Notes: a model not told the origin generated them from the letters alone. A DNA stretch of 9,154 nucleotides from a virus (IMGVR_UViG_2695420871_000007); one strand, 5' to 3'. Positions 7,452 to 9,154 are shown, numbered from the stretch's first letter. Made by a program: numbers and translations.

Positions 7452-7932
7452 CGAGTAAATCCGGTAATTTATCCCCTGCCCGCGCACACTGATTTGCCCC
7501 CTTCGCAATAAGGGTTTTCAGATGGTCAAGATGGCGTGGTGTTAAATCAGGAAACTGTCGTTGCATGGATAAAGGGATGGAATCAAGCGTACTGGATAAC
7601 GCCATTGCCAGCTTGCTGAGGGCAAAAATACAGAACCCGGTGTCAATAAGTTTTCCTTTTGACACCTCATTTTTTAACTGCTGTGTAACAGCCTGTTCTG
7701 CTGTCAGTTCCCATCTGGCAATAAGCAATTTTTCCTCATAGTCGTCTTCGCTATCGCCATCAGGCACATCGTTTTTACTTCTTCTCAGATACGATATGTA
7801 AAAATCGCGCCAGGCATCCAGATCCAGTTGCCCTCGCTTATTCGATATCGGGGCACCCGGCAATTTCTGCAATCTGCGAAGCTGGCGATCGGTCAGACTT
7901 AAATGCCTGGCAACTTCAGTCTGCGTAGCCAC
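7423..7932 (-). CDS. Nu1: Terminase small subunit, lambda gpNu1-like (N-terminal HTH DNA-binding domain, C-terminal gpA-interaction region)
   Basis: 169-aa ORF with an apparent GTG start at 7932..7930; a GAGG motif lies 6 nt upstream. The C-terminal half matches recalled lambda Nu1 (T(G/A)FC.F.LS..A....S.LD..PLS.QR.FP.L..RH.D.LK and ...LL.EYI). The N-terminal part diverges but keeps the pattern of a DNA-binding helix-turn-helix. The 3' end overlaps the A start by about 29 nt, as in lambda. Confidence 0.85.
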   Translation of the reverse strand: MATQTEVARHLSLTDRQLRRLQKLPGAPISNKRGQLDLDAWRDFYISYLRRSKNDVPDGDSEDDYEEKLLIARWELTAEQAVTQQLKNEVSKGKLIDTGFCIFALSKLAMALSSTLDSIPLSMQRQFPDLTPRHLDHLKTLIAKGANQCARAGDKLPDLLDEYIRATTE

Positions 7933-7972
7933 TCCTCACCTCGCAAAAACTCTCACCTCACAATCACAACAA

Positions 7973-8048
7973 AACCGGTCATGTCCGGTTCACAGAAGAC
8001 CTGTTTTTATATTTTTCATATAGTTAACTTGAAGATAAACCGGACATG
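7973..8048. repeat. cosB-position repeat set: three copies of an 11-bp motif AACCGGWCATG (candidate terminase small-subunit binding elements) flanking an AT-rich tract
   Basis: AACCGGTCATG at 7973..7983 (top strand), AACCGGACATG at 7980..7990 (bottom strand, overlapping the first to form a near-palindrome) and AACCGGACATG at 8038..8048 (top strand). The interval 7991..8037 is AT-rich. They sit between cosN and the Nu1 start, where lambda has R3-I1-R2-R1. Confidence 0.5.
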
Positions 8049-8130
8049 GATCCAGGAAAATTTTCATAAATAGCGAAAACCCGCGAGGTCGCCGCCCCGT
8101 AACCGGTCGGATCGCCGGAAAGGACTCACG
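8045..8130. other. Cohesive-end site (cos): cosN 12-nt overhang at 8086..8097 with lambda-like flanks
   Basis: The reverse complement of 8045..8097 reads GGGCGGCGACCTCGCGGGTTTTCGCTATTTATGAAAATTTTCC, which as I recall is the first 43 nt of the lambda genome (cosN overhang GGGCGGCGACCT plus the proximal flank). The far side (8098..8130, reverse complement ...GGCGATCCGACCGGTTACG) also resembles my recollection of the lambda right terminus (...GATCCGACAGGTTACG). Confidence 0.85.
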
Positions 8131-8132
8131 AA

Positions 8133-8149
8133 ATGATAATTATTATCAT
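8133..8149. promoter_or_regulatory. 17-bp perfect palindrome ATGATAAT-t-ATTATCAT, Fur-box-like (GATAAT/ATTATC hexamers); candidate operator
   Basis: Perfect 8-bp arms around a central T. TGATAATtATTATC matches the 3' 14 nt of the classic 19-bp Fur consensus GATAATGATAATCATTATC at 13 of 14 positions by my hand count. It is followed by TATATAAG, a possible -10 region. Function is not established. Confidence 0.3.
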
Positions 8150-8303
8150 CTATATAAGGTTTATCACAACATGTGTGTACGCCATCAAACCACGAGAAAT
8201 AATCAATTATGACGCAGGTATCGTATTAATTGATCTGCATCAAATTAACGTAAAAGCAACTTCAGATAATACAAATCAGCAACACTGAATATGGGGAAAC
8301 ATT

Positions 8304-8489
8304 ATGTCATCAAAGAACAGAACCCGCAGAACAACAACCCGCAACATCCGATTTCCAAACCAGATGATTGAACAAATTAACATCGCTCTTGATCTGAAAG
8401 GTTCAGGAAACTTTTCAGCGTGGGTTATTGAAGCCTGCAGAAGAAGGCTGTCAACAGAGAGTTCGGGTATGAATTACATAATTAAGTAA
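8304..8489 (+). CDS. Small basic ribbon-helix-helix-like protein (61 aa), possibly of the YlcI/YnfO type found next to nohD/nohA in E. coli cryptic prophages; likely DNA-binding accessory (moron) gene
   Basis: The ORF has a GGGGAA Shine-Dalgarno-like motif 5 nt upstream of the ATG. After a basic N-terminal tail (KNRTRRTTTR) comes IRFPNQMIEQINIALDL....GNFSAWVIEACRRRL, the strand-helix-helix pattern of Arc/CopG-type repressors. Its position next to cos and Nu1, on the opposite strand to the late genes, matches where ylcI and ynfO lie in DLP12 and Qin. Family assignment is from memory only. Confidence 0.6.
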   Translation: MSSKNRTRRTTTRNIRFPNQMIEQINIALDLKGSGNFSAWVIEACRRRLSTESSGMNYIIK

Positions 8490-8621
8490 CATGGTGTTCA
8501 CAGAACACGCAGTTACCGGACACATCAGTTTTCCATTCGCTCCCTGGCAGTACAGGCTTCCCCTCTGACGGGATAGCCTGAAAAAATAACACAGAAAATT
8601 ATTTGTTATAATTAATATAAC

Positions 8622-8762
8622 TTACTCAAAAAAAAGCGACGAGAAAATCAGCATCAACGAACAATAAGCGCCAATACGTGATAACAAATGGCAGCCATAT
8701 TTATCTGCAGTATAAGCAATGGACAGGATAACCACACCAGAAACCGTCAGCATAAAATCCAT
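8622..8762 (-). CDS. Unlisted small ORF (46 codons) encoding a predicted two-helix hydrophobic membrane peptide
   Basis: Hand translation of the minus strand: ATG(8762..8760) GAT TTT ATG ... GAG TAA(8624..8622) gives MDFMLTVSGVVILSIAYTADKYGCHLLSRIGAYCSLMLIFSSLFFE. A GGGGAAG Shine-Dalgarno-like motif lies 5 nt upstream. Two hydrophobic stretches are separated by a short polar DKYGCH..SR turn. It is below the size cutoff of the supplied ORF track and is in the late-operon orientation. No homolog recognised. Confidence 0.35.
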   Translation of the reverse strand: MDFMLTVSGVVILSIAYTADKYGCHLLSRIGAYCSLMLIFSSLFFE

Positions 8763-9018
8763 TTGAACTTCCCCGGACAAAATCGACTCATCTAAAGATT
8801 TACAGCTCTTTTTATTATTAATATGTTAAAAGCAAAATAAACAGATGTTCAATAACACGAATACAAAAACGTGCTGAAATTCAATGAATCCATTTCTGTG
8901 TCATCAATTAATAGTGATAAACATCCGGCTTCTTCCACCATCGCACCGGACAGGCGACTATGAGGGGACAACGCCGCGCTCCGTTAACGCGGTAAACCCC
9001 GGTGTGTATCGTTTTTGA

Positions 9019-9154
9019 TTATCCCCGCACACTCGCGCAGAGGAGTCTCCCTGTCGGGCTGCGGTCTCTGTTAATGAGGGAATACAGCGACGATACGGCG
9101 CATTGAGGTGTACTGGCAATAGCGGACACTACCATTTGTTCTTTTTTTAAGCAG
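9019..9154 (-). CDS. Possible 3' end of a minus-strand gene entering from beyond the window (unidentified)
   Basis: One minus-strand frame is open from the window edge to a TAA at 9021..9019 (...KKEQMVVSAIASTPQCAVSSLYSLINRDRSPTGRLLCASVRG*). This region is more GC-rich than the adjacent AT-rich tract. No recognisable homology; it could equally be non-coding. Confidence 0.2.
   Translation of the reverse strand, partial: CLKKEQMVVSAIASTPQCAVSSLYSLINRDRSPTGRLLCASVRG

Follow-up and report, generated by a model that had tools for sequence, protein, structure and literature searches.

A probable two-helix membrane peptide gene of the ECs1538 family in a moron-like segment of Escherichia coli lambdoid prophages

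Morons are extra gene cassettes in lambdoid phages (Juhala et al. 2000, as cited in PMC4104026). They are recognized as DNA that is present in some prophages and missing from collinear relatives, that has a base composition unlike that of its neighbors, that has a promoter and a terminator of its own, and that is expressed from the repressed prophage. The bor gene of lambda and of the DLP12 prophage of E. coli K-12 lies as extra DNA between Rz and cos. One moron-encoded protein, gp15 of phage HK97, is reportedly located in the inner membrane and excludes superinfecting phage. Two other classes of small hydrophobic protein are relevant to prophages: type I toxins (Hok, TisB, ZorO, Ldr, Ibs, ShoB), which are shorter than 60 amino acids, hydrophobic, and often found in prophages, and class II holins and pinholins (S21, PF04971), which have two transmembrane domains in about 70 amino acids. 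In yeast, transmembrane microproteins are said to have arisen de novo from thymine-rich sequence.

Here we describe a locus that resembles each of these in part. The window, by which we mean the whole stretch of 9,154 nucleotides that was analyzed (virus IMGVR_UViG_2695420871_000007), comes from a lambdoid E. coli prophage, of which it covers the right end together with the head region; the late genes are on the minus strand. It contains a minus-strand open reading frame (ORF) of 46 codons plus a stop codon (8622-8762), which probably represents a true gene whose product is a small membrane peptide with two helices. It shares the strand of the late genes, and its 3' end faces that of a ynfO gene. 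Like bor and other morons, the segment with this ORF is extra DNA between Rz and cos that some relatives lack, and both the deviant base composition and the prophage expression of morons are seen for it. However, bor is a lipoprotein gene on the opposite strand, whereas the ORF follows the late strand and its product is a peptide with two predicted transmembrane helices.

The ORF starts with an ATG at 8762, ends with a TAA at 8624-8622, and encodes the peptide MDFMLTVSGVVILSIAYTADKYGCHLLSRIGAYCSLMLIFSSLFFE. A purine-rich SD-like motif, GGGGAAG (8768-8774, minus strand), lies 5 nt before the ATG, and translation would begin at this codon behind a weak SD; the motif reads GAGGAAG in the Sakai strain and GGGGAAC and GGGGAAT in the two divergent alleles described below (B and C, respectively). 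The strand is shared with Rz, nu1, and terL. On the other strand, a YlcI/YnfO-family (DUF3950) gene of 61 amino acids (8304-8489, plus strand) converges on the ORF, the two stop codons being 132 nt apart. Re-reading the ORF from the sequence confirmed the coordinates, strand, ribosome-binding-site-like motif, and convergent layout given in a preliminary description of this DNA, and the two hydrophobic segments that it reported are indeed present in the peptide and are both modeled as helices by AlphaFold2.

With a four-sequence alignment, AlphaFold2 places the helices at residues 2-21 and 25-44 on either side of a Y-G-C turn (pLDDT 85). The predicted product is a 46-residue helical hairpin, with two hydrophobic helices of about 20 residues and a tight turn between them. 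Residues K21, H25, and R29 adjoin the turn and D2 and E46 are at the termini; given the positive-inside rule, the placement of the three residues by the turn predicts a cytoplasmic loop and periplasmic N and C termini. A BFVD fold search with the hairpin model returned only generic helical hairpins of uncharacterised proteins, all with E > 0.5.

The preliminary description presented the gene as unannotated, which was wrong. The exact CDS is called by PGAP in every genome sampled (WP_000347013.1): it appears as a “hypothetical protein” in the nearest relative, and the same annotation lies under the match in 40 of 40 genomes sampled across the ranking. The identical protein is encoded by ECs_1538 (NP_309565.1) in prophage Sp6 of E. 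coli O157:H7 Sakai (NC_002695.2, 1561112-1561252), and a further identifier of the peptide is A0A066T8Z3_ECOLX in UniRef. Every source labels the ECs1538 peptide as hypothetical or uncharacterised. In Sp6, the same 46-amino-acid sequence is found in the same gene order as in the window (Rz, a conserved block, the ORF, then convergent ynfO). The packaging modules differ, being of the lambda type (nu1/A) in the window and composed of an HNH endonuclease with terS/terL in Sp6, but the gene itself is the same. The trio of block, ORF, and ynfO thus occurs behind different packaging modules, and the ORF is always downstream of the Rz/Rz1 cassette.

The ORF is an orphan gene of the ECs1538 family, confined to E. 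coli lambdoid prophages. The exact peptide sequence is present on at least 1000 contigs in a large protein collection, and the 241-nt region around the ORF is found in 734 of 5426 complete E. coli genomes (~13%), mostly in single copy and at ≥ 99% identity in 615 of the 734 carriers, which include O157:H7, O55:H7, and O104:H4 strains. Among 50,697 deposited phage genomes, two have the ORF. The peptide had no match in Pfam, PHROGs, NCBIfam, PADLOC, or PDB sequences. Two word-indexed protein searches and an exhaustive profile search of 1.84 billion representative proteins found no homologues outside E. coli and returned only E. coli copies, fragments, and frameshift variants. GTDB species representatives gave no match to either a back-translated peptide scan or an IUPAC DNA pattern. 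A metagenome scan recovered only alleles with 91-100% identity and therefore added no new divergent alleles for codon analysis. In a literature search, WP_000347013 and ECs1538 were absent from main texts, and the peptide was absent from the supplements of “The Cryptic Bacterial Microproteome.” Our analysis changes little: public annotation has included the ORF from the Sakai genome onward, and its ribosome footprints are already in a supplementary table. The ORF exemplifies a common class of orphan microproteins, those with two membrane helices that are encoded by morons of prophages in pathogenic E. coli.

Along the late strand, the window reads from the end of Rz (~9113) through a GC-rich block, the ORF, the convergent ynfO gene, and an ORF matching phrog_9395 to cosN, beyond which are a nu1-like terS, terL, the portal gene, and other head genes. 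The lambda cosN core, GGGCGGCGACCT, is matched exactly at 8086-8097 (minus strand), with homology to the lambda right end nearby, and by this match the ORF and the right-hand terminus of the phage chromosome are about 0.5 kb apart. A 458-bp segment (8459-8916), consisting of the 3' tail of ynfO, a spacer, the ORF, and an AT-rich upstream region, stands where an alignment with the related prophage L089 / IPCEC42 has only 42 nt, and the alignment resumes on both flanks, in the body of ynfO and in the GC-rich block. In K-12, the corresponding DLP12 interval instead holds bor, ybcV, and ybcW. The GC content of the segment is 26-42% versus 54-58% in the adjoining block, and expression from a repressed prophage is seen in published data for uninduced Sakai (PMC5597208), at low read counts. 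Judged by such features, the segment with the ORF has the pattern of a moron.

Three intervals within and beside this segment are useful to distinguish. The spacer between the convergent stop codons (8490-8621) is variable and contains a weak hairpin (8508-8494), the only one from the terminator scan, and no canonical terminator. The upstream part (8763-8916, minus strand), 154 nt in length, is AT-rich with a core GC content of 26-29%, is free of indels, and is the putative site of a lysogen promoter. Between the end of Rz and the segment lies the conserved GC-rich non-coding block (8917-9103), which would belong to the leader of the ORF in late read-through transcripts. This block is 96-100% identical between prophage alleles whose flanks are ~80% alike; 1891 of 5426 E. 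coli genomes carry it, some with as many as 9 copies, and it is unannotated by PGAP but was named ECs1537 in the original Sakai annotation. In K-12, its DLP12 homologue precedes the bor start codon by ~115 nt. The block had no match in Rfam; it may be a promoter, a regulatory site, or a structured RNA.

To assess coding, we compared three alleles of the ORF, A (the window), B (strain SHP24), and C (P0007). Allele C has 89% amino-acid identity to A, and allele B has 80% nucleotide and 74% amino-acid identity to A. The start codon, SD-like motif, frame, and stop region are kept in all three, with no internal indels, and the ORF is intact in 115 of 115 retrieved copies (17 haplotypes). Six of the 115 copies have GTG in place of ATG, a change by which the initiation codon is still preserved. 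NG86 estimates of dN/dS are 0.31 (A-B), 0.27 (B-C), and 0.59 (A-C); there are 4 synonymous changes versus 1 non-synonymous change within allele A, the common one, and the amino-acid replacements are conservative (BLOSUM permutation P = 0.034). The second helix is the better conserved half, with 5 synonymous changes versus 2 replacements between A and B over codons 26-45. A conserved frame with a bias toward synonymous change had been proposed as a check on the gene; the frame is kept in the three alleles and 115 copies, but in a permutation test the synonymous excess gave P = 0.21 for A versus B and only P ~0.09 for all lineages combined.

Diversity across the segment is uneven. The ORF has a pi of 0.012 and zero indels, and the downstream spacer has a pi of 0.036 and 21 gapped columns, with 54-64% identity and indels between alleles. 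The 154 nt upstream, at a pi of 0.014 with no indels, are as conserved as the ORF, so that nucleotide conservation alone does not single out the coding region. The large protein collection also contains infrequent frameshifted alleles (P0004, P0008, P0010). Taken together, these data are moderate evidence for a real gene. The ORF ends in a T8 homopolymer (8625-8632, minus strand); with T9, the final Glu is lost, and further slippage of the T run extends the C terminus to ...FFFLSKLY (P0002, a cluster with 46 members). Slippage in this terminal T8/T9 run therefore makes the C terminus variable, and it is the sole length change among the alleles.

[quoted passage not shown] 2017 (PMC5597208). 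In that study (S2 Table), its RNA and footprint RPKM, RCV, and coverage were 57.6, 26.1, 0.46, and 0.98 in LB; 32.7, 7.3, 0.23, and 0.81 in BHI; and 2.1, 0.6, 0.29, and 0.13 in BHI under cold/salt stress. The authors called translation at a footprint RPKM ≥ 1, an RCV ≥ 0.25, and a coverage ≥ 0.5, and ECs1538 passes all three in LB. Ribosome profiling, which the preliminary description had named as a check, is thus favorable, albeit at low read depth (in BHI, means of 7 RNA reads and 4 footprint reads; S7 Table). The RCV of 0.46 is in the low range, since short annotated genes average 1.55, and the authors state that the reading frame is not resolvable for single ORFs. In their S4 Table, ECs1538 has an SD 4 bp upstream (dG -3.6 kcal/mol) and a promoter predicted by BPROM 248 bp upstream but no terminator, and it is classed as “real” by machine learning; their S9 Table predicts an inner-membrane location and 2 transmembrane helices.

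The same uninduced Sakai culture shows that RNA-seq and footprint signal on the ORF is above that of the upstream late genes, with late-strand RNA RPKM values of 10.1 for ECs1536, 3.0 for ECs1537, and 8.4 for the holin ECs1530 (PMC5597208). The step in RNA (57.6 versus 3.0-10.1 just upstream) suggests that transcription in the lysogen would begin within the 154 AT-rich nucleotides that precede the ORF, although the upstream block is multi-copy and its low RPKM may reflect dilution by multi-copy read mapping. A scan for minus-strand promoters upstream of the ORF found none at its threshold (9/12); the best candidate, read by eye, is a weak one with 8/12 matches (-35 TTGAAC at 8851-8846, -10 TAACAT at 8828-8823). 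Given the low RNA level around the BPROM site, 248 bp upstream, we rejected it as the chief promoter in the lysogen, a rejection made uncertain by the multi-copy mapping. The EDL933 transcription start site supplements (PMC10469882) contained no match to local sequence strings. As no terminator is predicted between Rz and the ORF, the gene would also be read through from the late promoter during lytic growth, and its level would be higher late in infection. The co-transcription with late genes that had been proposed for the ORF would account for only part of its expression, since in the lysogen RNA on the ORF exceeds that of the upstream late features.

Two further signals lie close by. The Ribo-seq “novel genes” XECs148 and XECs147 of the same study map to the spacer downstream of the ORF, at 8482-8592 (minus strand) and ~8457-8618, respectively, and have footprint RPKM values of 18-19, a density similar to that of ECs1538 and past its stop codon (PMC5597208). 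Allele B lacks the XECs148 frame, and allele C has it in altered form. On this allele comparison, XECs148 is probably not a conserved gene, and ECs1538, whose frame is conserved, is the better supported of the two; XECs148 shows that the specificity of the Hücker et al. data set is limited. Upstream, a sigma-70-like site (TTTACA-17-TATGTT; 8799-8827, plus strand) is directed toward the conserved block, away from the ORF and in antisense orientation relative to the late transcript. Its -10 element is kept in allele B, and it is followed by no terminator and shows no sign of a small RNA. The AgvB/AsxR/EcOnc and Pas sRNAs were considered as local RNAs and set aside, as their sites are near Q and the holin, outside the ORF region (PMC4104026; bioRxiv 10.64898/2026.05.13.724894).

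Much of what makes the ORF look like a membrane protein gene would be expected by chance. Its sense strand is 44% T (39%, 46%, and 48% by codon position), a stop-free frame of 46 codons arises in 12.6% of composition-matched shuffles, and its GRAVY of 1.11 equals what the shuffles give on average (1.10; P = 0.48). Each of the three sense frames would yield a hydrophobic product, and the 620-nt intergenic stretch contains four ORFs of 40-53 codons. As T-rich composition explains both the length and the hydrophobicity, neither is evidence for a gene in itself, and the caveat already raised in the preliminary description, that hydrophobicity may be a by-product of base composition, holds. One could therefore read the locus as a transcribed AT-rich spacer, or as an RNA, non-coding or antisense, that extends at its 3' end into the ynfO transcript, with a frame that is a T-rich accident and is annotated only because gene callers accept it. 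Consistent with such a reading, selection is not significant (P ~0.09-0.2), the upstream non-coding region is equally conserved, footprints go on at like density past the stop codon (XECs147/148), the RCV is low and the read counts small, homologues outside E. coli are missing among the 1.84 billion representative proteins, and the RNA folds somewhat better than shuffles (z = -2.5). We nevertheless consider an accident unlikely. The T excess peaks over the ORF and not over the whole module; three alleles and 115 copies all retain the start, the SD-like motif, and the frame, with indels confined to the downstream spacer; and a dN/dS of ~0.3 with conservative replacements, the 5 synonymous changes versus 2 replacements in the second helix (A-B), and a start-codon variant (GTG) that keeps initiation all argue for a translated frame. 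A non-coding RNA would also have to be one with no Rfam family match.

If the ORF is translated, the question becomes one of role, and the preliminary description had offered a toxin, a holin or antiholin, or a superinfection-exclusion factor; none of these is borne out by a family match in Pfam, PHROGs, NCBIfam, PADLOC, Rfam, or PDB. A type I toxin would depolarize the inner membrane and be silenced by an antisense or divergent small RNA, expressed from the site at 8799-8827 or by read-through from ynfO. The peptide does fit that class in size and hydrophobicity (46 amino acids, GRAVY 1.11) and in its prophage location, a divergent plus-strand promoter-like site lies just upstream, and the ynfO transcript could overlap the ORF, there being no terminator between them. 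However, most of the type I toxins characterized in E. coli consist of one helix, and a two-helix hairpin is predicted here. No cognate antitoxin RNA was found: Rfam, which includes some antitoxin RNAs such as Sok, had no match over 7800-9154 on both strands at E up to 1, and no small RNA unit bounded by a promoter and a terminator is predicted. A tightly silenced toxin would hardly have ribosome footprints across 98% of its frame, as the ORF has in cells growing exponentially in LB, and the ORF and ynfO occur independently. A late-expressed modulator that tunes lysis timing in the manner of an antiholin, a pinholin, or a spanin accessory is suggested by the site on the late strand, ~350 nt past Rz with no predicted terminator between, by the constant position downstream of the Rz/Rz1 cassette despite varied packaging modules, and by the predicted membrane hairpin; two predicted transmembrane helices and a place in a lambdoid prophage are shared with the S21-type holins. 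Holins typically have a charged C-terminal tail, which the 46-residue peptide lacks, and searches of Pfam, PHROGs, and NCBIfam at E up to 1 returned no holin or lysis family. The ORF is also outside the holin-endolysin cassette, ~350 nt beyond Rz and not beside the endolysin, and the prophages already have a full cassette (a class II holin of PF04971, endolysin, and Rz). It is missing from many related prophages and from most phage genomes (present in 2 of 50,697), and its expression in the uninduced lysogen is above that of the holin. Both the type I toxin and the holin/antiholin readings are disfavored; we regard a lysis modulator as very improbable and a type I toxin as a shade more improbable still.

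We lean, then, toward a real, translated, moron-borne small membrane protein, most likely an inner-membrane microprotein expressed at a low level in lysogens. As for what it does, cell killing or lysis timing is less likely than an interaction at the membrane: by analogy, the peptide may bind a host or phage membrane protein and thereby act in superinfection exclusion or in the modulation of a transporter or sensor, a suggestion that we make tentatively. HK97 gp15 is a working analogy only, as a small prophage-expressed inner-membrane protein on a moron; no sequence or family relation between gp15 and the ORF was found, and the gp15 moron is in the tail region whereas the ORF is at the right end. 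Homology to exclusion or defense systems was absent from PADLOC at E up to 10 and from PHROGs. A more specific proposal, which we think quite doubtful, is that the ORF is a recent transmembrane microprotein restricted to E. coli prophages that arose de novo from a T-rich spacer at a right-end moron site, is under mild purifying selection that is strongest on the second helix, and has acquired a new membrane-level function, e.g., phage DNA exclusion. The ORF is like the yeast microproteins in its orphan status, T enrichment, and composition-level hydrophobicity, but genome and phage searches found no non-genic ancestral sequence for it; a distant blastn search of the 458-bp module against 50,697 phage genomes returned just two near-identical records and no ancestral non-genic homologue. 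Should phage exclusion, modulation of a host membrane protein, or a de novo T-rich origin prove true, the ORF would be a useful small model.

The preliminary description also drew attention to possible interplay between the ORF and the gene facing it, which it called an RHH gene. The label is plausible: the YnfO protein has a DUF3950 match and a weak HicB-like PHROG match (E = 0.012), and a single-sequence AlphaFold2 model shows two helices at a pLDDT of 58, too low for testing the RHH claim. Since no intrinsic terminator lies between the ORF and ynfO, overlap of the convergent transcripts is possible. However, ynfO is far more widespread than the ORF and occurs without it in L089 and K-12 DLP12, and the ORF occurs without ynfO in allele C (L084-L086). 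As each is found without the other, they do not form an obligate pair, and from this distribution a functional pairing appears unlikely.

Some minor features of the region between the ORF and cosN may be of use to annotators. The left boundary of the moron-like module falls inside the last ~10 codons of ynfO (8459-8489), so that YnfO C termini differ, the protein having 61 amino acids with the module and 66 without it (L089). Between cosN and ynfO, a 51-amino-acid ORF (8133-8288, plus strand) aligns over its full length with phrog_9395 (E = 1.7e-38). At the DNA level it shares 88.6-89% identity with the right ends of lambda and HK629/HK630, where it is mostly unannotated or “hypothetical.” The Sakai RefSeq record has a 90-nt CDS, ECs_1539 (NC_002695.2; L088 31476-31565), on the same strand as ECs_1538. 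Its annotation is inconsistent: ECs1539 was originally 186 nt long, and in other O157 genomes PGAP instead places the 61-amino-acid YlcI/YnfO gene on the opposite strand.
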